A DNA stretch of 64,000 nucleotides from a virus: IMG/VR virus record IMGVR_UViG_3300006880_000001, positions 1-64,000 of that record. The stretch is one strand, 5' to 3'. Numbering within the stretch: the first letter of the stretch is position 1; each line of letters opens with the position of its first letter. Below, one piece after another: positions 27,313 through 64,000 of this stretch. Made by a program: the position numbers and the translations under genes. The notes below the pieces were generated by a model, which was given only the letters and a program-made list of their open reading frames with translations, was not told the DNA's origin and did no database searches.

Positions 27313-27364
27313 GGCTTCGATCCCTACCACGGGCCGGTGACCGAACATGGTAAAGTGCCGGAAC

Positions 27365-28372: not shown

Positions 28373-28489
28373 TGCGGACGACGGTTCTTCCGATGGTGTC
28401 GCCCGCCGCCGTCGCGTGGCTCGTCTACCTGGCGCTGTTCGGTCTCTTGGTGTGGGCGCTTGCGGACGGCCTCAGGGTCGAAGGTGGGA

Positions 28490-33109: not shown

Positions 33110-33186
33110 GCGCGCTTAGCTCAGCAGCAGAGCACCGAGCGTAATGGACTCGGGTGTCGGGGGTGCGACTCCCTCAGCGCGCGCCA
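33110..33186 (+). tRNA. non-canonical tRNA-like gene 2 (9-nt anticodon loop CGUAAUGGA)
   Basis: GCGCGCT/AGCGCGC acceptor + G-CCA; TA-GCTC/GAGC D arm; CCGAG/CTCGG stem; GGGGG/CCCTC T stem with TGCGACT loop. Confidence 0.85.
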
Positions 33187-41090: not shown

Positions 41091-41393
41091 TCAGCGGCGG
41101 CGCCGCCGCCGACGGCCCCGAGCTCCGGTGAGGCCGGGCAGCGTCAGCTGCTCGACGACGCTCGTGGTCGACTTGCCGGCCTTGGCGGCCTTGTAGCCGT
41201 CGCGCTTGCCGCGACTGAACATCGTCTTCACGATGGTGCCGCAGCGGCCGCGGCCGACGACGGTCTTGCCGCCGGCGCGTGGTGCCTTTTTGGTCGGCTG
41301 GGGGCAGCCACCGCCCTTGACGGACCGGTAGCCCTTCTTGATGCGGCCGGTGCGCTTGTTGATGCCGGCACACTTCGCGCGAGCGGTAGCCAT
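41091..41393 (-). CDS. small basic putative core protein (..LTGARGRRRRRRR)
   Basis: KCAGINKRTGRIKKGY..KGGGCP; leaderless behind the palindrome promoter. Confidence 0.75.
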   Translation of the reverse strand: MATARAKCAGINKRTGRIKKGYRSVKGGGCPQPTKKAPRAGGKTVVGRGRCGTIVKTMFSRGKRDGYKAAKAGKSTTSVVEQLTLPGLTGARGRRRRRRR

Positions 41394-41412
41394 GGAGCAA
41401 AGCGTACTCGAG

Positions 41413-41428
41413 GATCGAAGGTGCGATC
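41413..41428. promoter_or_regulatory. 16-bp palindromic operator, copy 1
   Basis: GATCGAAGGTGCGATC just upstream of the TACGCT -10 of 41393(-). Confidence 0.7.
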
Positions 41429-41475
41429 AAGGCGAACCTGGCACCGGGCTCGCAGGGCGTGGTACCCTGGTCGAC

Positions 41476-41739
41476 GTGCCTGACGCCAACCACGCCGGGG
41501 ACGCTGAGGCGAGCCAAGTCGACGTGCTCCACCTCGCCATGCGGGGGCTCACCAACGAGATCGGCCAGCTCACGCGACGCATGGAGGCTGTCGAGAGCGG
41601 CCTCGCGCTCGTGGGCGAGCGCCTGACGCGCCTGGAGGTCCTCTCTGACGGCATCCACCGTCTCGCCAACGCGATGCAGGGTCTCACGCTGGAGCTCGAG
41701 CTCGCGCGAGTCCGGGGGGCGAAGGCCGACGGAACCTAG
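41476..41739 (+). CDS. coiled-coil protein
   Basis: TACCCT-N7-GTG leaderless start; heptad pattern. Confidence 0.55.
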   Translation: MPDANHAGDAEASQVDVLHLAMRGLTNEIGQLTRRMEAVESGLALVGERLTRLEVLSDGIHRLANAMQGLTLELELARVRGAKADGT

Positions 41740-42017
41740 CGTCGGCGCCGACGCGGACCGGTCAGATCGAGGAGCTCGCCGCGCTCACCGCGGGTCTTGC
41801 GCACGCCTTGGTGCGGGGCCGTTCGGACGCACTGCGCGACGACCAGCCGACGGAGGTCGTACATCTTCCGCTTGGCCTGCCCTGCGTAGGGCTCGGCATA
41901 GAGGAGCGCGTCGACGGCGCTCTTGCAGTCCCCGAGCTCGAGGTGGTCTCGGATGAGGCGCACCTGCGCGCTGACCTCTCGATCTGCGTTGTGTTGCTGA
42001 CGTCGGCGGGTACTCAT
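41736..42017 (-). CDS. small basic protein (..LTGPRRRRR)
   Basis: ATGA coupling; shared C-terminal motif. Confidence 0.7.
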   Translation of the reverse strand: MSTRRRQQHNADREVSAQVRLIRDHLELGDCKSAVDALLYAEPYAGQAKRKMYDLRRLVVAQCVRTAPHQGVRKTRGERGELLDLTGPRRRRR

Positions 42018-42349
42018 CGACGCCTCCGTGGCCGCGGCCCCTTCAGCTCCAGCTGGCGACCGCGTTCCGCGGTCTCCTCGGCGAGCCGGCTGTAGTCCTT
42101 CGGCGCCGAGCGCGTGCAGCGCGCGAGCATCTGCTCGCGCCATCGGTAGTCGCCTCCGACGTCGCTCACGTCCTGCTTCTTGCGTCGTGCGACGCCGAAG
42201 AGATGCTTCAACTCGGCCAGGCGGAATACGAAACCTTGGCAGTCGTCATTGGCCATCGCGCGCCGGACCTGCGCGTCGACGGCCACGGCCTGCTCGCGAA
42301 GGGATGGACGTTTCCCTCGCGGCCTCATCGGACCCTTTGGCAGCGCCAT
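42014..42349 (-). CDS. small basic protein (..LKGPRPRRRR)
   Basis: AAGGAG RBS; shared C-terminal motif. Confidence 0.7.
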   Translation of the reverse strand: MALPKGPMRPRGKRPSLREQAVAVDAQVRRAMANDDCQGFVFRLAELKHLFGVARRKKQDVSDVGGDYRWREQMLARCTRSAPKDYSRLAEETAERGRQLELKGPRPRRRR

Positions 42350-45697: not shown

Positions 45698-45707
45698 AGG
45701 AACGCCC

Positions 45708-46406
45708 ATGAACACGAAAGACATCGACGTCTCAGAATGGGTACACCACGAATTCCGGTCGGCCTTCCTCCTCCCTCAGGACCGCCCAGGCGGATTCGTC
45801 CGTGAGCTCTTCACCTACAGTCGGTCGCAGCCGATTGTCGGTACGACGCGGATGTCGGAGCTGGTCCATACCAACATCCCGCGGTCGGGCGACAGCGGTC
45901 TCCCTCGGGATTGGGGGATGGTCGTCTTGGGGTGGCGCGCGACCACGGACGCTCCGATGGATGAAGCGCTCATGCGCTGGGCGGCCGCGACGGTGGTGCG
46001 CTTCGAGTACAACAGCAGATGGTACGCCGATGCGCCGCTCGCCAATCTCCTCCGCAAACCGCAGCCGCTTCTCGACAGACCTGTGACGATGGAGGACTTC
46101 GCTATGCCGCGTAGGGCGACATCGGACGAATCGAGCGCACCACTCGGCGGCGCGCTCCCCATCTATATGCGCGACAACATCTCGTACAAGGTCGACGTCG
46201 CCGCGCCGCATGCAGAGTCGGACGCCTTCCGTGCACACCTGGCGTGTGAGTGGCCCGGCGGTGTCACGCAGGCCCTGGGCCACCTGCGCGCCCTGCAGAT
46301 GACGAAGGAGACTTCTCCGTTGGTCTCCGCTGCCATCGGCGCCCTGACGAAAGACGTCACGTTCTGGGTGCACTTCAACGGACTGCTCAAGCGCCCGATC
46401 CAGTGA
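45708..46406 (+). CDS. divergent paralogue of the putative large capsid protein
   Basis: Shares RSQPI, TN.PR.GDSGLP, RFEYN, LPIY.RD.ISYK and GL..RPI with 61452-62144. Confidence 0.8.
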   Translation: MNTKDIDVSEWVHHEFRSAFLLPQDRPGGFVRELFTYSRSQPIVGTTRMSELVHTNIPRSGDSGLPRDWGMVVLGWRATTDAPMDEALMRWAAATVVRFEYNSRWYADAPLANLLRKPQPLLDRPVTMEDFAMPRRATSDESSAPLGGALPIYMRDNISYKVDVAAPHAESDAFRAHLACEWPGGVTQALGHLRALQMTKETSPLVSAAIGALTKDVTFWVHFNGLLKRPIQ

Positions 46407-48967: not shown

Positions 48968-49273
48968 GTGCCGCTGCCGGAAGGACATCGTCGGATCATG
49001 GCACTGGTCAACGCCTCCATCCCCTCTGGCCGAGCGCCCGAGCTCCCGCTCGATCCGGACATGGAGGCTGCGCTCGAGGCGTCCGACCGCGAGCGCGCGG
49101 CCATCTACGCCTCGATGGACGACCTCTCCGACAAGTTCGAGCAGCTCGCCGACGACATCGACAGCGGTCCACAGAACGATGCCATCCCCGTCGAGATCTC
49201 GGAGGACGAGGACAGCCTCGCCGTCCATGTCGACGCCGCCCTCGACAGCACGCCGGTCCCGCGCCGGCGCTAG
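48968..49273 (+). CDS. acidic hypothetical protein
   Basis: GTG right after the previous stop. Confidence 0.5.
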   Translation: MPLPEGHRRIMALVNASIPSGRAPELPLDPDMEAALEASDRERAAIYASMDDLSDKFEQLADDIDSGPQNDAIPVEISEDEDSLAVHVDAALDSTPVPRRR

Positions 49274-52098
49274 ATGAGCTCGAGCGTCACGAGGACGTTG
49301 GTCTGCGCCGTGCCCGGGAGCGCCGACTTGGTGACCTGCATCGAGAGCAGGTCACCCGCGGCGAACGAGATGGAGGCCGAGGCCGACGAGCCGCTCGACG
49401 CTGTGTGGGCGACGGTCAGCACGAGACCGGTCGAGGCGCCGTTCTTCCGCATGGTGTAGACCGTGTTGCCGGCGCCGACGCCGGCCGTGCAGTGCATGCG
49501 CAGATTGCGGATGATGCAGGCGCGGGGGATGTTGAGCTGGATCTCGGTGGTGCCGACCAACGCCTGGCCGAAGCCCGGCGCCATGAAGCGCGCGGCGGTC
49601 ACCGCGGCGTCCGTGTCGACGGTGCCGAAGGTGACGGGGAAGCCGCCGACGGAAGCCCAGCCAGTGTTGTTGGCGGCGGCCTCCTTCGTCCAGAGGACCG
49701 TCGCTTGGCCGCCGCTCGAGTTGACGAGGGCGGAACCGATCGGAGCGGTGACGTTGTTCTGCGGACCCGCAGCGAGCGCCATGAGGGCGATCTGTCGCCC
49801 CAGACCGGCGTTGCCGCCTGCGGTGACGCCCACGGACGCGCCAACAACGACGCCGGTCGGGAAGCCGATGAGCGCGTTCGCGGTACCACCGGTGACCTGG
49901 ATGCTGCCCGCGTTGCCGGAGGTGGTGGTCCAGATCCGGGCCGGTACCGGGGTCCCATCCGCCTGGTTGGTGAGGAGGATCGAACCGCCGCCCCTACCAC
50001 CCGCCAGCGTCGTCGTTGCGGCGTCGCCGACTTCCTTGCTCGACACGTTCAGGATGTCGGAGACGTTGCCGGTGCCGCTGGTGGAGCCGACGGCCATGCC
50101 GAGCGTGGCAGCCGCGGTGCCGCCAACGACCTGCACGCGAGAGCCGAGACCACACCGGTTCGACGTGATGCGTAGCTGGCCGCCGCTGTTGGAGGCGACG
50201 GCGGTCGTGAGGACACCGTTGATGCGGTTGATGACGTCGACGAGGGCCTGGTCGGCCGCCGTGAAGACGATCGACTGATTTGTCGTCGCGTCGATGTTGA
50301 CCGTGAGCGCCTCACCACCGACGAAGCCGGTCGGGTAGGTACCGGCGACGCCAGTGCGCTGCGCCTGCGTACAGCTGAAGGTGATGGTCTGCGGCGCGCC
50401 GCCATTGACGGCGACGGTCAGGGTGTCGCCATTGGTCATGACGTACGGCATCGGAAGCGTAGAGACCACGGCCCCCGTGTTGTCGGCGGGGACCTCGATG
50501 CCGGCGTTGGTGATGACGCCGAGGTTGTGTTGGGCGATCCGCGAGCCGAAGATCGGCTCCGTCGTACCTCGCGTCCATCGTGCGATCGAGAACGCGTTGA
50601 TGACCATGCAACCGCTGACGGTCGAGTTGCTGATCGATCCGGGGGACGCCGAGAAGTTGACGCAGGTCAGCAGATTCAGTCCGCCGGTCAACGCCATGGA
50701 CCCACGCACCGTCTGGTGGTCGCCGAGACCTTCGATGGCGCGCAGGTTGAAGCCGACCGCGGTGTTGACGGCGGTAGGGGTCATCCGTGCGATGCACCCC
50801 GCGACCAGTACCTCGTACGCCGATTCGATGACGAAGCCGGTCGGGCCACGCGTGGAGTCGGCGATGCTGTTGCTGACGTGCACCTTCGACGGCAACGTGG
50901 ACCCGCCCACGCCGAAGATGTACACCGGCGTGACGTCGACGGCGGAGGCCGCGACGATGTAGCGGGCGATGTTGGCGGTGTAGGTCAGGCCCTCGATGTA
51001 GCGGAAGAGCTTGACCTGTGGGCGGCCGGTGCCGAGATCCGGATCGACGTTGCCTTCGACATCGCGCACGAAGACGTTGCCGATCATGTCGACGTTCTGC
51101 AGGTTCAGGGCGTCGACCGACCCGCGAATGACGTTGCTGGCGATCACCGATCGCTTGTGCGAGGTGGCGCCCGGACCGTCTCCGGTGAACGTACAGCTCA
51201 GCGCCGAGTTCGAGACGTTGTGGGTCTGGTTACAGTGGATGTTGAATTCGAAGTTGCCCACCAGACCCGTCGGCTCGAAGTCGATCTCCTGGTCGTGGGG
51301 GCCGCTCAGCCAGTTGTGCGAGATGATGATCCGCCCCGTCGCGCGCTGGATGCCGATGCCCGAACGCGAGCTCACGCAGTCGAGCGCGTTGGCGACGATG
51401 CGGACGTTGGTGACCTCTTTGGCCGACTCGCCGAGGATCTGGATGCCATCGCCGGGCTGCCCGAAGAACCAGCAGCCGACGACCTCGACGTCCGTCGGGC
51501 CGACCGCGTCGGAGGCCGCGCCGCGGATGCGGATGATGTGGTCCTGCTCGGAAATGTTGGTGAGGCTGAGGCCATCGAACCCGAGGTTGTAGAAGCGGAT
51601 CCGCTTCGAGCCGCCGTGGACATAGAAGAGGTAGTAATCCTGGAGGCCGGACGAGCCGGTCATGAGCAACTTCGAGGCAGGACCGTCACCCAAGAAGAAG
51701 ATGTCGGTGACGCCGTTGAGCTCGAAGTTCCACACGTTGGGCGGGGCGGGGCGCTGGAATGCGTAGTTCCCCGGGGGGAAGTAGAGGATGCCGCCACCAG
51801 CAGCCGACATCGTCGCGATCGCCGTCTTCGCCATCGCGTCGTTGTTCGTTACGCCATCGCGCACGAAGCCGAAGTCGCGGACCGCGTTGTACACGCGTAG
51901 GTTGTGCAGGTTCTGGATCGTCCAGCCGGAGGTTGGCGTGCTGGTCTTGAGCCACGTGCGCGGCAGGACCGTGGACGTATCGATACCGATGGAACCCACC
52001 GTCGCCGCGTACGGAGCGGTATCGTACGACGTCGCTTGCTGTGCTGCGTCGATCAGGTTGACCCGCAGCTTCTGGGTGCCGAAGACGCCGGCCGTCAT
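49270..52098 (-). CDS. beta-helix (pectate lyase-like) spike / receptor-binding protein
   Basis: VRDFG..DGVTNND..GGGILYFPPGNY, PbH1-like repeats, repeated beta-sandwich linkers, C-domain shared with 52098-54245. Confidence 0.8.
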   Translation of the reverse strand: MTAGVFGTQKLRVNLIDAAQQATSYDTAPYAATVGSIGIDTSTVLPRTWLKTSTPTSGWTIQNLHNLRVYNAVRDFGFVRDGVTNNDAMAKTAIATMSAAGGGILYFPPGNYAFQRPAPPNVWNFELNGVTDIFFLGDGPASKLLMTGSSGLQDYYLFYVHGGSKRIRFYNLGFDGLSLTNISEQDHIIRIRGAASDAVGPTDVEVVGCWFFGQPGDGIQILGESAKEVTNVRIVANALDCVSSRSGIGIQRATGRIIISHNWLSGPHDQEIDFEPTGLVGNFEFNIHCNQTHNVSNSALSCTFTGDGPGATSHKRSVIASNVIRGSVDALNLQNVDMIGNVFVRDVEGNVDPDLGTGRPQVKLFRYIEGLTYTANIARYIVAASAVDVTPVYIFGVGGSTLPSKVHVSNSIADSTRGPTGFVIESAYEVLVAGCIARMTPTAVNTAVGFNLRAIEGLGDHQTVRGSMALTGGLNLLTCVNFSASPGSISNSTVSGCMVINAFSIARWTRGTTEPIFGSRIAQHNLGVITNAGIEVPADNTGAVVSTLPMPYVMTNGDTLTVAVNGGAPQTITFSCTQAQRTGVAGTYPTGFVGGEALTVNIDATTNQSIVFTAADQALVDVINRINGVLTTAVASNSGGQLRITSNRCGLGSRVQVVGGTAAATLGMAVGSTSGTGNVSDILNVSSKEVGDAATTTLAGGRGGGSILLTNQADGTPVPARIWTTTSGNAGSIQVTGGTANALIGFPTGVVVGASVGVTAGGNAGLGRQIALMALAAGPQNNVTAPIGSALVNSSGGQATVLWTKEAAANNTGWASVGGFPVTFGTVDTDAAVTAARFMAPGFGQALVGTTEIQLNIPRACIIRNLRMHCTAGVGAGNTVYTMRKNGASTGLVLTVAHTASSGSSASASISFAAGDLLSMQVTKSALPGTAQTNVLVTLELI

Positions 52099-54245
52099 CA
52101 GATCAGCTCCACGGTAGCCGTCACGTTCGTCTGCCCCGCGGTGACCGCGCCCGACTTCGTGATGCTGATGGAGAGCAGGTCTCCAGCGACCACCGTGAAG
52201 GTGTGGGTCGTGTCCACGGCGTTGCCGGTGGCGGTGTTGCCAAGGGTCGTCAGGAGCGTGGTGTCCACGCCGTTCTTGCGGACGGTGTACGTGACGGTCG
52301 CGGCGTCGGTGCCAGCACCGGTCACGTGGACGCGCAGGTTGCGGACCGTCCCCGGGCGAGGGAGATTGATCTGGAGCTCGGTGGCGCCGGCGGTCGCCGT
52401 GGTGAAGCCGGGCGCGAAGTACAGCGCCGTCGCGACCGTGCCGGCGTCGCCGATGCCGAAGACGACCGGTCCACCGCCACAGGGGACCCAGCCTGCGGCG
52501 CCGGTGCCGGTCTCCTTGTAGTAGAACGCGGTGTCCTGGCCACCGTCACGGCGGGCGTATAGCGACCCGACGCGGGCGGTGACGACGCCTTCGGGCGAAC
52601 CGTTGCCGGTGCGGTACGTGGTGCCGACCGCCGACGCGTTGAGGCCGATGTACGGGAATACGGTGGTGCCGACCTCGGAGTAGTCGGCCGTCGCGGCGTC
52701 CCACAGGTTGGTGGCGTCCATCAGCTGGCCAGTGGTGAGCGAACCACCACCGGCGTCCTCGTAGCGGATGCCGACGTCGATCTGGTCGGCCTGGTTGTCG
52801 ACCATCTGCACGTTGACGATGTTGGCGCCATTGCAGAGGAGGCGAATGGCCGATCGGAACGTACCCGCGGCCGCCGTCATCTGGTTGCCGACGAGCTGGA
52901 CGCCGTCGACGGCGGCGTTGACCGCCTGAACGTCGATGGCGTCGACCGCGGTGGCGCCCGCGTTCGAGCTCCGGCAGATGTTGTCGCCGACCGACACGTT
53001 GATCGGGTCGAGCAGGTAGATGAACGGCGCGGCCGTGACCTCCTGCACGAGGGTGTTGTTGCCGCAGCGGACGATCGTCGGCTGGATGGCATCCGCGAGC
53101 TCCATCGAGAAGCACGCACCGACACCGGCACCGCTCGTGCGGACCCAGACGTTGCCCGAGAAGGCCAGATGGCTCACTCGACGCGTCACGCGCCAGGAGG
53201 CGTCGGTGCTGGCGTAGACACCGCTGGTCTGAACATTGCCGACGAAGGTGGAGTCCGCGACGTTCGTGATCTCGACGAAGCCGTTCAGGATGACGTTGTT
53301 GTTGAACGCCATCGCGTTGATGCGATCGGTGTCGTGGCCGACGAGGGACACCGCACGCCGCTCGGTGGCGTGGGTGTGGATGATCTCGTTGCCGGTGATG
53401 ACGACGTCCTGCGTCACCCCCGCCGCGGTCGAGACGAAGGCGATCTCGCGCTCGCAGCCGGTCAGGTAGCTGTCGCAGACCCAGAGGTTCGACACGCCCT
53501 GCTCGACGCCGACGCCATAGCGGGCGATCGACTCGAAGACCGAGTCGAGGACCCACACGCGCTGCACCAGGTTGCCAGCTGCGCCGAAGAGGTGGAGGCC
53601 GTCGCCCGCGTTCGCGACTGTGTTTTGGAAGCGGCAGCGGAAGAACTGGATCTCCGTCGGAGAGCCGGTACCGTCGCCGATCTCGACCAGGTGGTTCTGC
53701 CGCGACGCCGCCGGGTTCGAGAGCCCGCTACCGTCGAAGGTCACATCCTCGAATCGGATCTTTGACGCGTTGCCGCGGATCCGGAAGAGGCTCCACGCTG
53801 CCGCACCGGCGTTGCCGCTCTGCTTGAAGACGGTCGCGCTGCCCTGCCCGACGATGATGACGTTGGCCATCGCGTTCATGTCGATGGAGTACGGATTGGC
53901 TCCGTCCTTCGACATGAGGTACGTCCCGCGCGGGGCGTAGACGACCCCGCCGCCGGCCGCGTTGCAGGCGATGATGGCGTTGTTGATCGGGACGCGGTCG
54001 TCGGCGACGCCGTCGCCGGCGGCACCGTAGTCGCGGACCGAGTACCAGTGGAACGATTGGTTCAGGATCGTCCACGCGGTGTTGCCCGCTGCGGTCTTCT
54101 GGTAGGCACCCGGCGTCCCCTCGCGGCTGTACAACGAGCCGATGACGGCGGACACGCCACCCCCCGCCGTCGGATCCCCAGGCTGGCTGAGGATGTCGAC
54201 GAGGTTGAGGCGGATCTTGATGGCGCCAGCGTAGCCTGCCGTCAT
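52098..54245 (-). CDS. beta-helix (pectate lyase-like) spike / receptor-binding protein
   Basis: VRDYGAAGDGVADD..GGGVVYAPRGTY, PbH1-like repeats, GSPEGVVTA.VGSLY motif. Confidence 0.82.
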   Translation of the reverse strand: MTAGYAGAIKIRLNLVDILSQPGDPTAGGGVSAVIGSLYSREGTPGAYQKTAAGNTAWTILNQSFHWYSVRDYGAAGDGVADDRVPINNAIIACNAAGGGVVYAPRGTYLMSKDGANPYSIDMNAMANVIIVGQGSATVFKQSGNAGAAAWSLFRIRGNASKIRFEDVTFDGSGLSNPAASRQNHLVEIGDGTGSPTEIQFFRCRFQNTVANAGDGLHLFGAAGNLVQRVWVLDSVFESIARYGVGVEQGVSNLWVCDSYLTGCEREIAFVSTAAGVTQDVVITGNEIIHTHATERRAVSLVGHDTDRINAMAFNNNVILNGFVEITNVADSTFVGNVQTSGVYASTDASWRVTRRVSHLAFSGNVWVRTSGAGVGACFSMELADAIQPTIVRCGNNTLVQEVTAAPFIYLLDPINVSVGDNICRSSNAGATAVDAIDVQAVNAAVDGVQLVGNQMTAAAGTFRSAIRLLCNGANIVNVQMVDNQADQIDVGIRYEDAGGGSLTTGQLMDATNLWDAATADYSEVGTTVFPYIGLNASAVGTTYRTGNGSPEGVVTARVGSLYARRDGGQDTAFYYKETGTGAAGWVPCGGGPVVFGIGDAGTVATALYFAPGFTTATAGATELQINLPRPGTVRNLRVHVTGAGTDAATVTYTVRKNGVDTTLLTTLGNTATGNAVDTTHTFTVVAGDLLSISITKSGAVTAGQTNVTATVELI

Positions 54246-54257
54246 GGGCGGGGTCCT

Positions 54258-55259
54258 TTACAGCTGCAGGGGGATGTAGATCCCAGGGTTGCCGTCGCTT
54301 CCGGTGAGACCACCACCGCCTCCACCCGCACCGCCCGCGCCGCCGAGCACCGTCGGCGTACTCCCCGAGAAGGCGTGGAAGCCGATGATGATGACCCCGC
54401 CACCGCCACCGCCGCCGCCGCCGATGCCCGCCGCGGCCAGCGTGGCCCCTGCGCCGCCGTTCGCCGAGATGGTTCCGTTGTTGACGACCTCGCGAGCGAA
54501 GATGAATATGCCACCTGCACCCGAACCGCCACCGCGCCCCGCCGTCCCGCCATCGCCACCACCGGCACCACCGCCTGCTCCCGGTTGAAGCTGGATGAGG
54601 CCTGCCGTGGAGAAGTAGTTGCCGACGCCCCCCGAGATGGGATTCCGCACCGTACCGCGGTTGGCCACCGCGGCCGTGACCGTACCGCCGCCGCCCGCGG
54701 TGCCGCCGGATCCCGCGCCACCGGCGCCTCCCGAGCCCGTGAAGCCCGGGATGCATTCGGTGCGGTTGGTGCCGGCGTTGCCATTGGTGGCGGTTCCGTT
54801 ACCGCCAGCCCCCGACGAACTGCCCCAGACCGCCGCGGTGACCGCGCCGCCTCCCGACGATCCGGACGCGTTCACGCCGTTCGTGCGGATGATGCCACCA
54901 ACATCGACCGTGAGCGTGCCGCGCACCCAGATGCGGCAACCCCCTGGTTGCAGGATCTGTCCGGCGGGGACCGTCAGATTCGTGTAGTAGGTATCGCGTG
55001 TGAGCGTGACGGTGCCCGCAACGGTGAGCGCACCGTCGGAGCCGTCGCCGAAGAGGTCCCGTGGTGTGAGGGGAACCCAGGCGGTGTCCGCGGATCCCAC
55101 CTTCTGCCAGATCAGGCTCGTCGATGTCTGGTAGTAGAAGGAGCCAAGAGCCGCGACGACACCACCGCCGCTCGAGGGATCCGCGGCGCCGGGTTGCAGA
55201 GTCGGCGAGGTCGCAGCACCGCCCAGGGAGACCACGTCAGAGGCGAAGGGAAGGCTCAT
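54258..55259 (-). CDS. glycine-rich fibre/spike protein
   Basis: FGDGSDG, GGGxG repeats, N-terminal DP..GGGV.A.GS.Y motif shared with the beta-helix proteins. Confidence 0.75.
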   Translation of the reverse strand: MSLPFASDVVSLGGAATSPTLQPGAADPSSGGGVVAALGSFYYQTSTSLIWQKVGSADTAWVPLTPRDLFGDGSDGALTVAGTVTLTRDTYYTNLTVPAGQILQPGGCRIWVRGTLTVDVGGIIRTNGVNASGSSGGGAVTAAVWGSSSGAGGNGTATNGNAGTNRTECIPGFTGSGGAGGAGSGGTAGGGGTVTAAVANRGTVRNPISGGVGNYFSTAGLIQLQPGAGGGAGGGDGGTAGRGGGSGAGGIFIFAREVVNNGTISANGGAGATLAAAGIGGGGGGGGGVIIIGFHAFSGSTPTVLGGAGGAGGGGGGLTGSDGNPGIYIPLQL

Positions 55260-55819
55260 GTCGGATCCTCCACCCGGATGTCGAACACATGGCCCGAGAC
55301 GAGGCTGGTTGTGGTCTGCACCCGGAACTGCGTGGTGGTGCGATCGCCAGCTACCGCATCGGGAAGCGAGTAGCCGATGACGGTGGCGCCGCCCGCCTGT
55401 GTCATCTGGATGCGGTAGGCGTCGCTGGCGCGCGCGGCGGGGAGGGTGATGAAGAAGTCGCTACCCTCGGCTCCCGACGCCGAGTAGCGGAAGACCTGAG
55501 CCGTACCCGACCCGCCGCCGGCCGAGCCGCCGATGGACACGAACGGCCGCGGAATGAGGAAGGTGGTTGCCTCGGCGCCGAAGACGCGGAGTTCGCTGTG
55601 GAGGATCTCGAGCCAGACATCGACGCTCAGGATCCCACCCGTGGTGTTCGTGACGGTGACCTGGGTGGCGTCGGCGGTGGCGGTGAAGCCCGCCGTATCG
55701 AAGAAGATCCGGTCCGGGATCAACGCGACGGCGTTGACGTTCAGACTGTGCGGGAGCGACGCGTTTCCGCCGCCCGCGACGTTCGCGAACGACAAAACCT
55801 GATGAAGGCGGTTTGCCAT
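55256..55819 (-). CDS. putative virion protein (paralogue of 55833-56444)
   Basis: Shared RL..., PF, EG.DF..TLP and PD.VAGDRT.TQFRV motifs. Confidence 0.7.
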   Translation of the reverse strand: MANRLHQVLSFANVAGGGNASLPHSLNVNAVALIPDRIFFDTAGFTATADATQVTVTNTTGGILSVDVWLEILHSELRVFGAEATTFLIPRPFVSIGGSAGGGSGTAQVFRYSASGAEGSDFFITLPAARASDAYRIQMTQAGGATVIGYSLPDAVAGDRTTTQFRVQTTTSLVSGHVFDIRVEDPT

Positions 55820-56585: not shown

Positions 56586-56921
56586 ATGGCCGCCAAGACC
56601 ATCGACCTCTCACACGAGGGTGCCGCCGTTCTGATCTTCGTGCAGCCAGGCTGCGGCGCGTGCGACGACTTCGTCCCCATCCTCGCCCCACGCGCGCAGG
56701 CCTACCGCATGGCCGGCCTGAAGGTGATCCTGCTCAACCTAGCGAGCGCCGACGCGGCGATCCAGGCGGCTGCGGACCAGTACCAGGTCCGGGCAACGCC
56801 GACCACCATCGTGGTGCGTCGCGGCGCAGCGCCCCTTCGGATCGAAGGAGCCGTCGACGCCCGGTCCGTCGATCATATCCTCTCCGAGGCGTACCGCTGG
56901 CACAACCACACGCGGCCGTGA
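56586..56921 (+). CDS. thioredoxin-like protein
   Basis: F.QPGCGAC active site, cis-Pro ATPT, EGA. Confidence 0.85.
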   Translation: MAAKTIDLSHEGAAVLIFVQPGCGACDDFVPILAPRAQAYRMAGLKVILLNLASADAAIQAAADQYQVRATPTTIVVRRGAAPLRIEGAVDARSVDHILSEAYRWHNHTRP

Positions 56922-56923
56922 CC

Positions 56924-57895
56924 CTAGAGGACGTTGCCGTCCTCGTCGATATCGATGACGCGTCGGCCGGGACGACGGGCGCCTGCGTAGGCTCCGGCGC
57001 TGCGATCGGTCCACCACGCCCAGGCCCGCCAGCCGCCGTAGAGGGCGAGGCCCGCCAGGGCGACGTAGCCCACGGTGGTCAGGGTGTTCGTCGGAGCCAC
57101 CTGGCCGGGCGCCTGCGGATCCGGCACCAGGCGATCGCAGGCCTTGGCGCACGCGTCGCCGCGCGAGCCCGTGGCGATGCATTGCTCGAGGCAGCTCGTC
57201 GCCGTCTTGTAGGCTGCGTTCAGCTGCGTGGTGTAGTTCGCCGAGACCTTGGCGCTGTTCTCGGAGATCTTCATCTCCGCGTACCAGCCGTAGAGGCGCA
57301 CCGCCGCGAGGACGCCGAGGACGACGAACAGGCCGACGATGACGATGGTCAGCGGGCCGAGGCCGAGCTCGCCCGTCTGGGTGAGCCGTGTCGTGAGCTC
57401 CGCCAGCGAAGGCGCCTTCGCCTGGAGGAAGTTCTGGTCGGTGGTGAGGACCTTGACGTCAGCGGACGAGACGAAGCGGTTCGCGGCCGAGGCCGGCTGC
57501 GTCGCCTCCCGGAGTGCACCCAGGAGCTGCGGCGCCGTGTCGTCGTTGAACATGGCACCCGCGAGGCTGCCTGCAGTCGCACCGCTGCCACAGTCGAAGA
57601 GGATGGCCTTCTCGCCAGGGACACCCTTCCAGGCGAACAGGGTCGGCGCCGGGACGCTCTCCGGGAGCCCCGCGACGTTCTGGGCGCGCAGCTGCGCGAG
57701 CATCCCGCGCTGCGTCTCGTAGATGGAGATCGCGAAGAGGTTGTAGGCCTTGAGCTGTGCGCAGGTAGCCCGGCCCGCTCCGAGGAGCAGGGTGATGTGC
57801 TTCGCCATCACCCGAAGGTTCTCGCGGGTTTGGTCGATGTAGGCCGTCGTCCGCTTGAGGCTCTCTGCCTGCTCGGAGGTGAGCTGGTCCGCCAT
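56924..57895 (-). CDS. putative virion membrane protein, two TM helices flanking a CxxxC...CxxxC loop
   Basis: GELGLG-TM, CLEQC..CAKAC, TM + basic tail; leaderless start. Confidence 0.7.
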   Translation of the reverse strand: MADQLTSEQAESLKRTTAYIDQTRENLRVMAKHITLLLGAGRATCAQLKAYNLFAISIYETQRGMLAQLRAQNVAGLPESVPAPTLFAWKGVPGEKAILFDCGSGATAGSLAGAMFNDDTAPQLLGALREATQPASAANRFVSSADVKVLTTDQNFLQAKAPSLAELTTRLTQTGELGLGPLTIVIVGLFVVLGVLAAVRLYGWYAEMKISENSAKVSANYTTQLNAAYKTATSCLEQCIATGSRGDACAKACDRLVPDPQAPGQVAPTNTLTTVGYVALAGLALYGGWRAWAWWTDRSAGAYAGARRPGRRVIDIDEDGNVL

Positions 57896-59559: not shown

Positions 59560-60423
59560 CTACTCGTCGGTCGCGTACGTCTCGAAGGCGAAGGTCGCTC
59601 CGTCCGCCACGTTGTTGTAGTAGATCATCAGGTACTCGCCGAGGGCGGGGTTGATGACGAACCGCGACGTGGTGGTCGAGGCGACGGCGGCGGCAGAGGC
59701 CACGGTAGCCTCGCGCATGTTGAAGAAGTTGTCGATGAGCCCGACACGGACGTCCGCCGCCGCGCTGCCCTTCGTGTAGACGATGATCGTCCGCCGGCCA
59801 GAGACTGGGAACTGCGCGGCCAGCTTCTCGACGCCGGCGCCAGCGCCAGCAGTCGTCACCTGGCCGGTCTGGTAGAGCGGGAACCGCGACGTGGGGATGA
59901 TGGGCGGCGGGGCGCCCAGGTAGGCGTAGAGGTGTAGGAGCGGGGCGTTGTACGCCGCGTTGGGGACCGTGGTCCCGAACGTCGCCGTTGACCCGTCCGC
60001 CTTCACGTACGTGTTCCCGAACTGGAAGAGCTCTTCGGTGAGCGTTCCGGCGAAGGTCGTAATGACCAACGACGACGTCGTGTTGAAGACGGCGGTCGGG
60101 ACCACGTTCTGAGTCGCCGGTTGCGAGAAGGCCAGTGGCGCCTTCACGGAGACGCGGCGAGCGAAGTCCCAGAGGCTTGCGCTCGGGACCAGCTTCTGCA
60201 GCGAGTACGACACCCAGACGCGGTCGACAGTGCTGCGGGGGCCGATGGCGAGGCCGCCCAACGCCGGCATGGCCTTGGAGTTGATGGGTGGGAAGACGAG
60301 GTTCGTGCCGTCCGGGTCGTTCGCGACGACCGTATCGCCCCAACGGGCGATGAGGATCTCGAAGACGTTGTTCCTCTGCGCGAGGACGTCATCGACGGAG
60401 ATGGCGCTGTTGATCCAGACCAT
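59560..60423 (-). CDS. beta-rich putative minor capsid/vertex protein
   Basis: GGAGG RBS; in operon with the capsid-like genes; beta-strand pattern. Confidence 0.6.
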   Translation of the reverse strand: MVWINSAISVDDVLAQRNNVFEILIARWGDTVVANDPDGTNLVFPPINSKAMPALGGLAIGPRSTVDRVWVSYSLQKLVPSASLWDFARRVSVKAPLAFSQPATQNVVPTAVFNTTSSLVITTFAGTLTEELFQFGNTYVKADGSTATFGTTVPNAAYNAPLLHLYAYLGAPPPIIPTSRFPLYQTGQVTTAGAGAGVEKLAAQFPVSGRRTIIVYTKGSAAADVRVGLIDNFFNMREATVASAAAVASTTTSRFVINPALGEYLMIYYNNVADGATFAFETYATDE

Positions 60424-60427
60424 AGGC

Positions 60428-60757
60428 TCAGCCTCCGATTGCGGTCGGCCACGCCTCCGAGATTGCGACGGAGATGAGTCCGATCGCACCGGACCCCGCC
60501 GCGTGGCAGCCCTGCTCGGGCGCCAAGACGAAGGTCGCCTCGGAGTTGGGCGGGATCAGGAACGTCGCTTGGGTGTTGCTCGCGATGTTGACGTCCTGTG
60601 CTGTGTGGGCGAAGAAGATGTTGACCGGACCGACGTTCCGAACGACGACGCGGATCGGTACCTTCGACGCGTAGGTGATGACCGCCGGCGCGCCGACGCC
60701 GAGGTTGGGGACGGTCATGGTCTTGACCGTCGACGGTTGCATGGCGCGGGGAGACAT
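60428..60757 (-). CDS. small beta-sandwich virion protein
   Basis: RVVVRNVGPVNIFF..FLIPP pattern; GGAGGA RBS. Confidence 0.65.
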   Translation of the reverse strand: MSPRAMQPSTVKTMTVPNLGVGAPAVITYASKVPIRVVVRNVGPVNIFFAHTAQDVNIASNTQATFLIPPNSEATFVLAPEQGCHAAGSGAIGLISVAISEAWPTAIGG

Positions 60758-60774
60758 GGTCGTCCTCCCCCGGC

Positions 60775-61287
60775 TCAGCGCGCCTCGGACGGCGGCGCGA
60801 CCGTGACGTGGAAGCCCTGGAAGGTGAGCTCGATCCGGAGGTTGGCCACCACGGGGTTGAACGCCACCGCCGGCACCGCGAGCGTGTCGACTGAGATGAT
60901 GAGCTGCTCGGCCTTCTTCAGGTAGAGCGGCTCAGCGAGCTCCCAGGTCGCCTCCGACTGGCCCTTGATCAGGGTGTGGAGGAGGGTCGGGGCGCGGGTC
61001 CACAGGTGATCCTTCGAGACGTCCTGGATGCGCACGCGCACGAAGCGCAAGAGGATGTCGAAGACCGAAGACGGCTGGATGGCCAGGATGACGTTGTTGG
61101 CATCGAGGCCGGTCACCCGTGGGATCATCCGATGGATCTCGAACGGGCGATCGAAGGAGTTCAGGAACGTCGCGTCGGGGAACTGAACGCCTGAGGCCGA
61201 GAAGGGGACGATGAGCTCGCCCGGGATCGAGAACGGCTCGCGGAAGGTGATGTTGAGACCAGCGAACGTGCTTGGCAGGCGACCCAT
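60775..61287 (-). CDS. putative small single-jelly-roll major capsid protein (170 aa)
   Basis: Alternating beta pattern (RPFEIHRM..VRVRIQD..P.YL..QLIISV..IELTFQG); adjacent to the 230 aa gene; fold is inferred. Confidence 0.55.
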   Translation of the reverse strand: MGRLPSTFAGLNITFREPFSIPGELIVPFSASGVQFPDATFLNSFDRPFEIHRMIPRVTGLDANNVILAIQPSSVFDILLRFVRVRIQDVSKDHLWTRAPTLLHTLIKGQSEATWELAEPLYLKKAEQLIISVDTLAVPAVAFNPVVANLRIELTFQGFHVTVAPPSEAR

Positions 61288-61356
61288 GGAAGAGCTCCCG
61301 ATCGTCGAGGGGTTTGGACTTGATTCCCCGACGTCAAGGCCATCCTACCAGACGAC

Positions 61357-61372
61357 GATCGAACCTGCGATC
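61357..61372. promoter_or_regulatory. 16-bp palindromic operator, copy 7
   Basis: GATCGAACCTGCGATC upstream of the TAGGAT -10 of 61287(-). Confidence 0.7.
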
Positions 61373-61416
61373 AAAAGGCCAAGGGCCCGTCGGCACTTCG
61401 CCGTACGGGCCCTTTG
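61373..61416 (-). terminator. intrinsic terminator after the putative large capsid gene
   Basis: AAGGGCCCGT..ACGGGCCCTT hairpin followed by TTTT on the minus strand. Confidence 0.6.
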
Positions 61417-61451
61417 GGGGATAGCCAGGCGCCGTCGAGGGCGCCGTCCGA

Positions 61452-62144
61452 TCAGGTGATCGGGCGCTGGATCAGGCCGACGAGGCGGACGACGAAGTCC
61501 GCGAAGCCGAGCACCGCACCACCGTCCGAGGCCGCCTGCGCGATCGCGAGGGCGGTTTCCGGCTGGAACTGCATCTTGTACGAGATGCCGTCGCGCAGGT
61601 AGATCGGCAGCACCAGCGACGCGCGGTCACGCGGGCTGGGGATGCCGTTCTGCGCGAGCTCGATGTTCGCCGCCGTCGTGAACAGCGAGTAGCCCGACCC
61701 CTGCGGGTAGTACTCGAGCTGTCCGGTGGTGAACTCCTTGTTGTTGTACTCGAACCGCAGCGCGGTCACGCGGTTGATGTTGAACAGCGTGCGGAGCGTC
61801 GGCGGGTCCGAGAAGTCGCCGAGGACCGGCTGGGCGCCGGCAGCGCGGCAGACGCGGTTGCAGCGCACGCAGATCGCGTACACGAGCATCGCGTAGCCCT
61901 GCGGCAGGCCGGAGTCGCCGGCGCGCGGCACGTTCGTGTCGACGCGCGACATCGGGCGAGTACCGCCGGGGATCGGCTGCGAGCGGCCGACCGCGAAGGC
62001 CTCGACCTGCGCCTGCTGCGCGTTCGACAGCTGGACGGCCGAGAAGTAGCTGTCGTCGATCCAGTCACGGAGGGAGATCACGGTCCCGTCCGAGAGCTTG
62101 ACCGTGGTCGTTCCTGGGGATACACCAACAGTTCCCTGCGACAT
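61452..62144 (-). CDS. putative large single-jelly-roll major capsid protein (230 aa)
   Basis: Strong AGGAG RBS, own terminator, TN....G.LP..Y.V..I pattern, C-terminal VRLVG..RP strand; fold is inferred. Confidence 0.6.
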   Translation of the reverse strand: MSQGTVGVSPGTTTVKLSDGTVISLRDWIDDSYFSAVQLSNAQQAQVEAFAVGRSQPIPGGTRPMSRVDTNVPRAGDSGLPQGYAMLVYAICVRCNRVCRAAGAQPVLGDFSDPPTLRTLFNINRVTALRFEYNNKEFTTGQLEYYPQGSGYSLFTTAANIELAQNGIPSPRDRASLVLPIYLRDGISYKMQFQPETALAIAQAASDGGAVLGFADFVVRLVGLIQRPIT

Positions 62145-62233
62145 TGTCTTTTCTCCTGAGAGGGTGAGGACTTGCAGCCCTATCGGGGAGGGCGGACCTC
62201 CCTAGCGCAGGGCTTGGTGGACGTGGGTCGGGA

Positions 62234-62815
62234 TCAGCCCCAGATCGTGCCGCCGTACGCGCCGGCGAGGTTCGACGTCTGGGGGCCGCCGAGCAGGTTG
62301 ACCTGATCCGACTGCGCGGACTGGCCGAGCAGATCGACCGGCGGCGACTCCGACAGCGACGCACCGGCGATCGAGCCGCCGTTGATCATGCCGTAGGCCG
62401 GCGACTGCGGAGTCGCGGCGGGCAGACCCATGGCGCCGTTCAGGTAGTCGACCTGGGGCAGGCCGAAGCCGTTCAGGTAGTCGACCTGGGGCAGGCCGAG
62501 GGCCGCGGAGCCCATCAGGTGGCGCTCGACGAAACGCACGCCGGCCGAGACGAGGAGACCGAGACCGGCCATGACGCCGGCGCGGCGGGTCGAGGGCATC
62601 GCCCACAGCCCCAGCGCAGCGGCCGCGCCGACGCCGAAGCCGACGTCGTCGCTCTTCATGTACCAGCTCGATCCCTTGTCCGTCGCCATGCGGACGAGGG
62701 CGCTCACGATGGCGGGCGCGCCGGCGCCGATGAAGGCGCCGTACAGGGGAGGCAGGCCCTCGGGCTCGCCGAACTCGTTGAGGCCAAGCAGGTTGACCTC
62801 GCTCAGGTGCTTCAT
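62234..62815 (-). CDS. multi-TM virion membrane protein with a Gly-motif-rich tail
   Basis: Three hydrophobic segments, then (GLPQVDYLNG)x2, INGG, LLGG. Confidence 0.7.
   Translation of the reverse strand: MKHLSEVNLLGLNEFGEPEGLPPLYGAFIGAGAPAIVSALVRMATDKGSSWYMKSDDVGFGVGAAAALGLWAMPSTRRAGVMAGLGLLVSAGVRFVERHLMGSAALGLPQVDYLNGFGLPQVDYLNGAMGLPAATPQSPAYGMINGGSIAGASLSESPPVDLLGQSAQSDQVNLLGGPQTSNLAGAYGGTIWG
62435..62499. repeat. 33-bp-period tandem repeat (GLPQVDYLNG x2)
   Basis: GCCGTTCAGGTAGTCGACCTGGGGCAGGCCGA at 62435 and 62468. Confidence 0.9.
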
Positions 62816-62855
62816 CTGTCGTCTCCTCTGGTGAAGGTCACGTGTGGCCTCGGGT

Positions 62856-63065
62856 TCAGCGGGCGCACTTGGCAGCGCCTCCCTTTTGGAAGGCCCATCC
62901 GGTCTTGACGCGCTTGTCGGGGCAGAGTCGCCCCCAGCGCTTGGTTCGGCTGTTGTAGATGCAGCGGCAGCCGTCGGCATCGACGGCGGCACCGTCATCG
63001 CCCAGCCCCGCACCGCGGCGCTTCTTGCCGCGGCGGGGACCGTCGAGTGTGATCACGCTCGGCAT
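62856..63065 (-). CDS. small basic Cys-containing protein with MPSVITLDG N-terminus
   Basis: TGATG coupling; CRC..NSRT..KTGW..KGG resembles 40732 and 41091. Confidence 0.7.
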   Translation of the reverse strand: MPSVITLDGPRRGKKRRGAGLGDDGAAVDADGCRCIYNSRTKRWGRLCPDKRVKTGWAFQKGGAAKCAR

Positions 63066-63787
63066 CAGTGCTCCTCGCCCTCGTCGGGCAGCGGTGGCGG
63101 CGAAGGGGCTTGCGGCATGTTGGCCGCCGACTCGCGCATCGGGTTGACGAACTGGCGCCAGCCGCGCTGGTCGGCAGCCTCCTCGACGATCGCGGGGAGC
63201 CCGGCGGTCCACTGCTGGCCGACCGGGACTGCGTAGGCGCCGTGCTGCTCGGCGGTGATGATGGGCGTCGAGGTCGGCGGATGCATCGCCGCCGCGGTCG
63301 TCTTGCCGACGATGTTCATGGCGGCGGTCATGACCGGTTGCATCGGCGGTCGGCCCCAGGCGTAGCCGTGGACGTTGCGCAGCGTACCCGGCTGGAACGG
63401 CGCCGCGGCTTGAGGCGGGGTCGACGGCGAGGTGGCGACCGGCGTCGCCGCGGTCGTCGCGACGAGCGCCGCCGCGCGCTGGATGCGGCGCTTGAGGAAC
63501 CAGCCCCGGACGCGATCCACGAGGCGTGGCTTCCCGGCGCTGAAGCCGTAGTAGTACGGGAGCGGTGCGTAGCCGAGCCCGTTCACCGGCGGCGAAGTCG
63601 GCGGCGACACCACTGCAGTCGTGGCCGGCGCCGCGCTCGTGATCTCGATGCCGAACTGCGGCGCAGCGGTGAACTGCCAGGCGACGTTCATCGCCGCCTG
63701 GACCGGATGGTAGCCCGGAATCGGCTGGCGGACATTCGTCCACGACGTCACATCGGGGCGAACGTACGCGAACGGTGCCTTCTTCAT
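63065..63787 (-). CDS. Pro/Ala/Thr-rich putative virion protein
   Basis: Leaderless start behind palindrome copy 8; VNGLG; internal PV..AAMN repeat. Confidence 0.65.
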   Translation of the reverse strand: MKKAPFAYVRPDVTSWTNVRQPIPGYHPVQAAMNVAWQFTAAPQFGIEITSAAPATTAVVSPPTSPPVNGLGYAPLPYYYGFSAGKPRLVDRVRGWFLKRRIQRAAALVATTAATPVATSPSTPPQAAAPFQPGTLRNVHGYAWGRPPMQPVMTAAMNIVGKTTAAAMHPPTSTPIITAEQHGAYAVPVGQQWTAGLPAIVEEAADQRGWRQFVNPMRESAANMPQAPSPPPLPDEGEEH

Positions 63788-63805
63788 AGTGTCGACGGTA
63801 GCGTG

Positions 63806-63821
63806 GATCGAACCTGCGATC
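63806..63821. promoter_or_regulatory. 16-bp palindromic operator, copy 8
   Basis: GATCGAACCTGCGATC upstream of TACCGT -10 and ATG 63787. Confidence 0.7.
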
Positions 63822-63913
63822 AACTGCCAAACATCGGAGATCCCACGCGTCGCGGGCGGTGCTCTCCGTTTTCGTGGGTGCGCATGGTCGACGAAGCGAG
63901 GTCGGGGCAGCGC

Positions 63914-64000
63914 TTATCGGCGCTTGCGCTTGTGCAGAAGGGCGTACGCGACCAGCGCGGCGATGCCGACACCACCGGCGATCTTGAGCGCGGGCCAGCG
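63914..64000 (-). CDS. 3' end of a membrane protein (TM + HKRKRR)
   Basis: ..LKIAGGVGIAALVAYALLHKRKRR-TAA. Confidence 0.6.
   Translation of the reverse strand, partial: RWPALKIAGGVGIAALVAYALLHKRKRR

Follow-up and report, generated by a model that had tools for sequence, protein, structure and literature searches.

The 64,000-nucleotide window analysed here, positions 1 to 64,000 of the IMG/VR virus record IMGVR_UViG_3300006880_000001, carries two neighbouring minus-strand genes, g91 and g90, whose products are probably (we put it at roughly 60%) the two principal components of a viral shell. The virus would be tailless and membrane-lined, probably icosahedral, and would infect a bacterium with peptidoglycan; the 129-kb contig containing the window would be its genome. 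The most likely build is the tailless, jelly-roll, membrane-containing one, known until now only in viruses of several-fold smaller size.

The window is the first 64 kb of a 129,359-bp contig of 67% G+C, whose start, over at least 100 bases, is repeated at position 129,249 (direct terminal repeats). The record is classed as a virus with direct terminal repeats, its completeness is estimated at 100% (CheckV), and the window is roughly half of a complete, terminally redundant virus genome. An earlier note on this DNA, made from the letters of the window, had proposed a tailless virus of unusual size and left the genome ends to be checked; the repeats mark the genome as complete, and its size is indeed far above that of any described virus of that build. 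Because raw open reading frame (ORF) lists are noisy at such G+C, genes were called via the GC content of third codon positions (GC3), which gave 188 genes in total.

The g91–g90 operon and its predicted folds

The gene g91 (61452-62144, minus strand) encodes a 230-amino-acid (aa) 'large' protein and g90 (60775-61287, minus strand) a 170-aa 'small' one, each predicted to be a single jelly roll; the first is the candidate major shell protein and the second the candidate second shell protein. Both ORFs, present as the earlier note described them, lie in the high-GC3 coding frame (GC3 0.90-0.95), and the GC3 of g91 is the highest among the 89 genes of at least 150 aa. They belong to a single minus-strand operon at 59560-63823, in the order g93, g92, g91, hairpin, g90, g89 and g88. 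The strong ribosome-binding site and private terminator ascribed to the larger gene are also there: AGGAGA stands 8 nucleotides (nt) ahead of the ATG, and a terminator-like minus-strand hairpin of -30 kcal/mol (about 61377-61424) is followed by CTTTTGA. No Pfam match was found for g91, g90 and six neighbours, and their PHROG matches were no better than E 0.0017.

AlphaFold2 models of the two proteins were computed from alignments of 38 (g91) and 37 (g90) sequences. Both models are nearly all beta, as the beta patterning of the sequences had led the earlier note to expect, with a predicted local distance difference test (pLDDT) of 81 and a predicted TM-score (pTM) of 0.77 for g91, and 90 and 0.84 for g90. 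Their nearest solved structures are shell proteins of icosahedral viruses with an internal membrane, so that the proposal of two single-jelly-roll proteins resembling those of membrane viruses holds at the level of predicted fold. The structure-comparison scores of g91 were 6.6 with HHIV-2 chain b, 6.5 with HCIV-1 chain D, 6.0 with both the STIV turret and SH1 chain g, 5.7 with the KHP40 cement protein, 5.3 with HCIV-1 chain A, 5.0-5.3 with P23-77 VP17 and 4.7-4.9 with P23-77 VP16. Those of g90 were as follows: EhV-201 (8.2), PBCV-1 (7.8), Sulfolobus polyhedral virus 1 (SPV1; 7.1-7.8 over 143-144 of 170 residues), HHIV-2 chain E (7.6), SH1 chain g (7.5) and HCIV-1 chains I and D (7.3-7.4, at 15-17% identity), followed by peptidylglycine monooxygenase (7.3), FLiP (7.1), faustovirus (7.0), PRD1 P3 (6.5-6.8), P23-77 VP17 (6.3) and the cement proteins of Pam1 (5.9) and KHP40 (5.4). 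The seven best entries for g90 are all shell proteins of membrane-containing icosahedral viruses. The excerpted text of the HCIV-1/HHIV-2 structure report assigns chains D and E to the small capsid protein VP7 (PMC6414509); an HHIV-2 chain starting near residue 39-40 fits the penton protein VP9, a chain assignment that we infer from that text.

Foldseek searches against solved structures gave nothing at E <= 0.001 for g91, the weak list consisting mostly of viral jelly-roll capsid proteins. For g90 they returned satellite panicum mosaic virus (6.4e-4), the cement proteins of KHP40 (6.8e-4) and Pam1 (1.3e-3), HHIV-2 chains E and I (1.4e-3 and 2e-3) and SH1 chain g (2.6e-3). Against BFVD, the g90 model had 96 matches at E <= 0.001, which were unspecific and mostly unnamed jelly rolls. 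Profiles of the g91 and g90 families, run with hmmsearch against all PDB chain sequences, had 0 matches at E <= 10, the chains of P23-77, SH1, HHIV-2 and HCIV-1 included. Paralogy between g90 and g91 was tried as an explanation and rejected (hhalign probability 0.2%).

Conservation, expression signals and the virion-like block

Twenty-one related loci were collected from viral contigs of 17-221 kb. Five genomes were compared, namely the 129-kb genome and four relatives that are at least 90% complete: G001 (137.9 kb) and G004 (85.6 kb), both with direct terminal repeats, G003 (221.4 kb) and G002 (195.8 kb). Three relatives fetched in full (G1, G3 and G4) were compared with all 188 proteins. The most conserved gene of the block is g91, present in 21/21 loci at a mean identity of 50%, followed by g97 (20 loci), g90 (15), g92 (14), g89 (12) and g88 (9), and the g91 and g90 families both occur in 5/5 genomes (85-221 kb). 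Wherever the genes were found their order is constant, g97...g92-g91-(0 to ~8 kb of inserted genes)-g90-g89-g88, the exception being locus L008, where the g88 homolog is inverted.

The expression signals of g91 are conserved along with it. In 20/20 analysable loci the ortholog is preceded by a purine-rich Shine-Dalgarno site, and a hairpin (-21.8 to -33.4 kcal/mol) lies no further than about 100 nt from its stop codon. Random 110-nt windows drawn from these loci (n = 800) have a mean of -18.6 +/- 4.1 kcal/mol, with 3.6% of them reaching the observed mean of -27.0, and locus by locus the g91 hairpin falls within the top 0-17% of random windows. Both proteins belong to large unannotated metagenomic families, g91 with 87 and g90 with 74 clusters at 90% identity, the longest contigs carrying them reaching 275 kb; a g91 profile searched against 1.84 billion representatives matched 281 clusters at 50% identity with E <= 1e-3, 114 of them at <= 1e-10. 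A tblastn search of 50,697 deposited phage records with g91 gave no match at E <= 1e-3, and no description of such a large jelly-roll lineage was found in the literature searched. The lineage, whose genomes measure 85-221 kb, is widespread in metagenomes, and from conservation and expression signals we infer that g91 and g90 behave like its major structural genes, g91 and g90 being putative major capsid proteins.

A second copy of the large jelly-roll family, the 233-aa g91 paralog g73 (45705-46406, plus strand), lies 15 kb from g91 on the other strand. It matches the g91 family (hhalign probability 98.5%, E 3.5e-15; hmmsearch E 1.7e-18, or 6.5e-48 with a deeper profile) and is absent from G1, G3 and G4, which have one family copy each. 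The single copy at locus L019 is nearer to g73 (62% identity) than to g91 (48%). In G003 (locus L048) the g90 ortholog is in two pieces, 86614-86796 and 87111-87533, about 315 nt apart, for which a frameshift, an intron or the insertion of a mobile element could account; a third match, a distant one, lies in a 419-aa ORF of the same genome at 191668-192924.

Four other genes of the operon flank the pair. Downstream, g89 (60428-60757, minus strand) encodes a 109-aa small beta-sandwich protein, a candidate vertex (penton) protein, which follows g90 in 12/12 loci having it and is present in all three fully fetched relatives; its ESM Atlas model (pTM 0.62) is nearest to viral proteins of about 90 aa (TM-score 0.69-0.72) and to Ena jelly-roll subunits. 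The next gene, g88 (59560-60489, minus strand), encodes a beta-rich, variable protein of 287-309 aa, a candidate spike or vertex-associated protein. It is found at 25-33% identity in 9/21 loci and in all three fetched relatives; its Atlas model is poor (pLDDT 0.41) and the similarity is limited to a C-terminal beta-sandwich. Immediately upstream of g91, g92 (62234-63013, minus strand) encodes a membrane protein with hydrophobic segments at about residues 23 and 78 (at a looser threshold); it is conserved in 14/21 loci, every time just upstream of g91. The Pro/Ala-rich g93 (63065-63823, minus strand), an ORF in the coding frame of the same operon, was not conserved in tblastn searches of the related loci, and neither g92 nor g93 has a Pfam or PHROG family match.

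The operon sits in a virion-like block spanning about 45 to 75 kb of the contig. The spike-like beta-helix proteins mentioned in the earlier note are g79 and g80 (49270-52098 and 52098-54245, minus strand), pectate-lyase-like proteins of 942 and 715 aa that match Pect-lyase_RHGA_epim (E 3.9e-9 and 2e-11) and are shared with G4; two window proteins match PHROG tail-spike families, which fits these pectate-lyase proteins. Adjoining the spikes is the 179-aa core protein g81 (55256-55795, minus strand), conserved in G1, G3 and G4 and lacking a Pfam or PHROG match. The block further encodes an Amidase_2 endolysin, the thioredoxin-fold protein g83 (56586-56921, plus strand; Thioredoxin E 6.2e-7; 9/21 loci) and the 323-aa single-pass membrane protein g84 (56924-57895, minus strand), which has its transmembrane segment at residue 174 and a basic segment near the C-terminus, and occurs in 6/21 loci and G4. 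At the end of the window, g94 (63914-64201, minus strand, to 64000 in the window), with a C-terminal transmembrane segment and KRKRR, opens a run of tail-anchored, basic-tailed membrane proteins that reaches about 75 kb of the contig; after g94 the block goes on with g95-g102 and g107.

The abundance of membrane-anchored proteins with basic tails around the pair, also remarked on in the earlier note, stands up to counting: a hydrophobic 19-residue segment occurs in 12/29 genes of g84-g112 and in 26/159 elsewhere, g90 being probably a beta-strand false positive among the 12, and the tails KRKRR, KKKKQRS, KMKKGR and RARSRRRR are visible in the block. For the membrane-anchored wall hydrolase of that note, candidates were located only outside the window, namely the Transglut_core protein g97 (65296-66060), which has an N-terminal membrane anchor, and an M23 peptidase (contig 126497-127180). 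Also beyond the window is g107 (70012-72222), a 736-aa coiled-coil protein. The first residues of the tail-anchored membrane protein g101 (contig 67429-67791; L001:3530-3892) repeat the GxVGVSPGTTT motif found at the N-terminus of g91 (exact by eye; hmmsearch E 0.22), which may be a docking or processing arm shared by the two. Small arginine-rich proteins are encoded by g62, g64, g65, g175 and g176. Three of them, g62, g64 and g65 (window 41091-42286, minus strand), are basic, their C-termini consisting of Leu-x-Gly-(Ala/Pro) and then a run of arginines; at contig 123525-123844 two proteins, of 63 and 41 aa, are extremely basic. These small basic proteins (g62, g64, g65 and the 123525-123844 pair) are candidate DNA-condensing proteins with a putative role in a nucleoprotein core.

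Could the jelly rolls be secreted carbohydrate-binding proteins of a large plasmid or other mobile element? Jelly rolls are common as carbohydrate-binding modules, cellular jelly rolls tie in Z score for g90, and the element carries a sugar-nucleotide gene cluster. We regard this origin as very improbable, given the direct terminal repeats together with an endolysin, a holin and a spike set, and given that one core protein, g97, is homologous to a virion protein of the phage SSIP-1. Moreover, no conjugation-type ATPase was found, the only P-loop proteins being two in number, and a window scan detected no N-terminal hydrophobic segment in g90 or g91.

Other features of the genome were noted alongside. 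The sugar-nucleotide cluster, at window 25262-31188, comprises a UDP-glucose dehydrogenase, an NAD epimerase, a 555-aa GT2 glycosyltransferase and a UDP-GlcNAc 2-epimerase (E 7.7e-73); none of its genes is shared with the relatives, and it may act in glycosylating the virion or modifying the host surface. On the plus strand at window 33110-33186, ARAGORN calls a tRNA-Ile whose anticodon, AAT, is unusual. A 770-aa vWA-containing protein (contig 98386-100698; L002:16286-18598) matches phrog_2426 (E 3.9e-158), is also present in G001 and G003, and has its gene next to that of g91 in three relatives (L015, L017 and L024).

Searches for tailed-phage genes and a packaging motor

The replication and DNA-metabolism genes of the 129-kb genome are of phage type: a family-A polymerase (PolA) fused to a UDG-like domain, an SNF2 helicase, the primase-helicase-like P-loop protein g152, the Dda/RecD-like helicase g113, a PD-(D/E)XK nuclease, a Sak4-like protein, a Dam methylase, a dCMP deaminase and a thymidylate-synthase-like protein. 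The genome also has two integrases, and integrase, holin and spike families are among the PHROG and Pfam matches listed for its proteins. The genome could be that of a very divergent tailed phage whose HK97-fold capsid, portal and terminase escape the profiles, with g90 and g91 as cement or decoration proteins or as tail-fibre or receptor-binding domains. Tailed phages do have such proteins, the cement proteins of KHP30/KHP40 and cyanophage Pam1 being small single jelly rolls of similar size with Foldseek E values of 6.8e-4 to 2.9e-3 for g90. We nevertheless consider a tailed phage unlikely. For both models, capsid-type jelly rolls score above the cement proteins; the block is unusually rich in membrane proteins; and the structural-block proteins, scanned singly, have no PHROG match, though PHROGs were built from tailed phages.

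The machinery of a tailed phage was searched for directly. PHROG scans covered 87 window proteins (best 25 of 39 families) and 85 second-half proteins (best 25 of 72 families), and a Pfam scan covered the 87 window proteins (best 25 of 29 families). Among the PHROG and Pfam matches listed, the 87 window proteins have no head, tail or packaging family, in keeping with the earlier note, which had recognised no terminase, portal or HK97 capsid in the 64 kb; among the PHROG matches listed for all 172 proteins, and in 38 proteins scanned singly, there is no head, connector or packaging family. 'Tape measure' PHROG matches in the second half were rejected as such, all of them coming from the 95-residue M23 domain of the 227-aa g182. 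Six-frame Pfam searches of the five genomes gave 0/5 for Terminase_6N, TerL_ATPase, Terminase_3, Phage_portal and Phage_capsid. Neither the other 65 kb of the contig nor the four relatives yielded a terminase, portal or HK97 capsid, while the jelly rolls on which the earlier note had staked its proposal are predicted. Absence of tailed-phage genes is still a weaker argument than it looks: the same Pfam searches miss most divergent tailed phages when run on phiKZ, crAss001, phage G, P74-26, RSL1 and HVTV-1 as a positive control, and for that reason the Pfam negatives are weak evidence on which the case is not rested.

Two stronger arguments are independent of the sensitivity of hidden Markov models (HMMs). 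The first is a count of shared large proteins. Only 5/24 proteins of at least 300 aa are common to all of G1, G3 and G4, of which PolA, SNF2, g152 and the PD-(D/E)XK nuclease are replication enzymes and the fifth is the coiled-coil g107. Between genomes whose g91 proteins are still 49-58% identical, one would expect a terminase and a portal to be conserved; to judge from these sequences, g107 is the one conserved large protein still unassigned, and there is therefore no conserved slot for a terminase or portal. The second is a six-frame census of Walker A motifs, in which canonical motifs in high-GC3 frames were found in g113 and g152 only, both helicase-type. To our knowledge, all double-stranded DNA (dsDNA) packaging motors are P-loop ATPases, some terminases having a deviant Walker A. 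The A32/FtsK-like packaging ATPase for which the earlier note advised searching the flanks did not appear in this census or in Pfam searches: Pox_A32 gave 0/5, and FtsK_SpoIIIE exceeded its cut-off in 0/5 genomes (one 12-bit match, in G004), with a sensitivity to far-off ATPases that is uncalibrated. The absence of a packaging motor is the most striking and the least secure feature of the genome.

A missing packaging ATPase and many membrane proteins would also suit a virus with a pleomorphic, enveloped or otherwise novel particle, in which g90 and g91 would be surface, fusion, adhesion or nucleocapsid proteins; jelly rolls do occur as spikes and adhesins too (Ena fibres, the STIV turret and XepA-like proteins). 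Such a particle seems quite unlikely to us. The pleomorphic viruses of prokaryotes known to us are far smaller. The best structural matches of both g90 and g91 are shell proteins of icosahedral viruses, and a gene set with spikes, a pair of jelly rolls and a small beta-sandwich of vertex-protein size parallels that of SPV1 (PMC8459092) and of the HHIV-2-type modules, as these are presented in the excerpted sources (PMC6414509).

Several considerations tell against an icosahedral membrane virus with g91 and g90 as its shell. The virus is known here from genes alone, from which its particle, lipid, host and expression are deduced. The models are of monomers, from which a vertical stance of the barrels or the formation of capsomers is not readable, and AlphaFold2 covered g91 and g90, so that g88, g107, g7, g25 and g129 could hide a known fold. 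Mutual homology of g90 and g91 is undetectable, unlike in the duplication model proposed for Halopanivirales. As to the missing tailed-phage genes, the PHROG negatives rest on the best 25 of 39 and best 25 of 72 families, and in the control phages the terminase model fired in 3/6, the HK97 capsid model in 1/6 and the portal model exceeded its cut-off in 0/6. A looser scan for Walker A plus Walker B found no further P-loop protein, with patterns uncalibrated on far-off phages or deviant terminases. Finally, motor-less enclosure of 85-221 kb of DNA is without precedent.

A working model, known viruses and the host

The data have led us to consider a model in which the two predicted single jelly rolls would stand on a lipid vesicle and tile it as capsomers, with the small beta-sandwich g89 closing the vertices. 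Spikes that recognise and cut host surface polysaccharide would be formed by the two pectate-lyase beta-helix proteins together with the variable g88. The vesicle would hold about ten single-pass proteins with Lys/Arg tails toward the DNA, together with the membrane-anchored transglutaminase-fold enzyme g97, and the 736-aa coiled-coil g107 could act as scaffold or ruler. Because no P-loop motor was recognised among the genes, the DNA would not be pumped by one; instead, small arginine-rich proteins would condense it, and it would be enwrapped as the particle assembles, in the manner of SPV1. Release would proceed via the Amidase_2 endolysin, the M23 peptidase and a holin-like protein. More speculatively, and as a tentative proposal, the genomes may represent a widespread, undescribed high-rank lineage of bacterial viruses of 85-221 kb, with a single-jelly-roll shell over a protein-studded membrane and DNA enclosed without a motor by co-assembly with arginine-rich condensing proteins. 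In that scheme the membrane-anchored transglutaminase-fold enzyme might process the condensing proteins at the Leu-x-Gly-(Ala/Pro) sites that recur ahead of the poly-Arg tails. The whole would be a bacterial counterpart of the archaeal portoglobovirus build, scaled up ten-fold and joined to a replication module of tailed-phage type.

SPV1 (Portogloboviridae, PDB 6OJ0), the best structural match, has a jelly-roll shell, a lipid layer, a nucleoprotein core and no ATPase, and it differs from the present virus in its 20-kb genome, hyperthermophilic archaeal host, lack of a polymerase of its own and single hexamer-forming shell protein (PMC8459092). The 129-kb virus has peptidoglycan hydrolases, a full replication module including PolA and two or three shell-type jelly rolls. 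With Portogloboviridae it has in common that no packaging ATPase was found and, if the arginine-rich proteins form one, a nucleoprotein core; a Sulfolobales host and a genome of about 20 kb without polymerase do not apply to an element of 129 kb with PolA, Amidase_2 and M23, and the g91 and g90 profiles showed no sequence similarity to SPV1 among the PDB chains. Because SPV1 is a 20-kb archaeal virus without polymerase, we use it as the closest working analogue and not as a family assignment.

The earlier note had placed the virus near Halopanivirales, the order (Helvetiavirae, Singelaviria) that includes P23-77, IN93, SH1, PH1, HHIV-2, HCIV-1 and SNJ1. According to the excerpted sources, what defines its members is a pair of vertical single-jelly-roll capsid proteins together with a packaging ATPase, a major membrane protein and genomes of 16-30 kb (PMC5332951, PMC6414509), which others give, likewise in excerpt, as 16-19 kb or about 30 kb (PMC12642351, PMC12643093). 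Two single-jelly-roll proteins, candidate major capsid proteins by their models, are what the 129-kb genome offers toward a true but enlarged member of this group. The hallmark FtsK/HerA packaging ATPase was not found in the five genomes by Pfam or Walker A scans of uncalibrated sensitivity; no profile similarity to VP16/VP17 or VP7/VP4 was seen in PDB at E <= 10; the gene order is unlike that of the group; and the genome is 4-8 times larger and has a replication module in the style of tailed phages. Membership is highly unlikely, the kinship proposed earlier is not supported, and because both the ATPase and a sequence link are missing the virus is not filed in Halopanivirales.

Among bacterial viruses, SSIP-1 is similar in general design: the excerpted descriptions present it as a tailless, membrane-containing virus with circular dsDNA of 44 kb and a large T=49 capsid of two capsid-protein types (PMC6260650, PMC6356626). 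Homology links its virion protein gp34 with the core protein g97 (E 8e-9, 152 aa), with the membrane anchor C-terminal in gp34 and N-terminal in g97. This is the sole match. A kinship of the capsids was rejected, since SSIP-1 ORFs reached best E values of 0.2 and 1.7 with the g91 and g90 profiles, in non-annotated frames, and none with a deep 126-sequence profile at E <= 1. SSIP-1 (L056, JN880423) gp40 (320 aa, 24775-25737) has a canonical Walker A motif, for which the 129-kb genome has no equivalent, and gp41 has a second one; both are candidate packaging ATPases of SSIP-1. Double-jelly-roll viruses (PRD1, PM2, FLiP and giant viruses; Bamfordvirae) mostly have an FtsK-type ATPase, and the prokaryotic ones have genomes under 20 kb according to the source as excerpted (PMC8812541). 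No fused double barrel was recognised in the 129-kb genome, where g90 and g91 are predicted single barrels and the one candidate by size is g88, whose Atlas model is the poor one (pLDDT 0.41).

Peptidoglycan hydrolases and Shine-Dalgarno sites point to a bacterial host. The labels of four metagenome-assembled genomes containing relatives disagree (Actinomycetes, Gemmatimonadota, Polyangiales and Woesearchaeota). Integration into the Gemmatimonadota chromosome CP070815.1 was considered and rejected: the relative there is a contig of about 61 kb between 100-N gaps (3,658,341-3,658,440 and 3,719,594-3,719,693) that ends after the g96 homolog, and the best PolA-like match lies 1.47 Mb from the jelly-roll locus. 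In the same record (G005), a metagenome-assembled 'chromosome' whose contigs are joined by 100-N gaps, a 1503-aa open frame at 2236662-2240720 aligns to the viral PolA in four pieces with gaps between them, suggestive of intein-like insertions. The sequencing runs containing the DNA are labelled rhizosphere metagenome.

Tailless, membrane-containing viruses of prokaryotes have been described as small, at under 20 kb for double-jelly-roll viruses, 16-30 kb for Halopanivirales, 20 kb for SPV1 and 44 kb for SSIP-1, as far as the excerpted sources go, and large prokaryotic virus genomes are generally assumed to be tailed. Atlas clusters of genomes like these are tagged Uroviricota; because such genomes are labelled tailed phages by default, soil and rhizosphere viromes may be misread, and the family is not a rare one, with its 281 clusters at 50% identity. 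The origin of single-jelly-roll capsids is itself under debate, which recently led to the new realm Singelaviria, as the excerpted source has it (PMC12714852). If our reading is true, a jelly-roll, motor-less lineage of 85-221 kb would break the size rule and add bacterial data to that debate. It would also raise the question of how a virus encloses over 100 kb of DNA with no motor, and it would mean that an internal-membrane capsid is scalable, in bacteria, to genome sizes like those of giant viruses.

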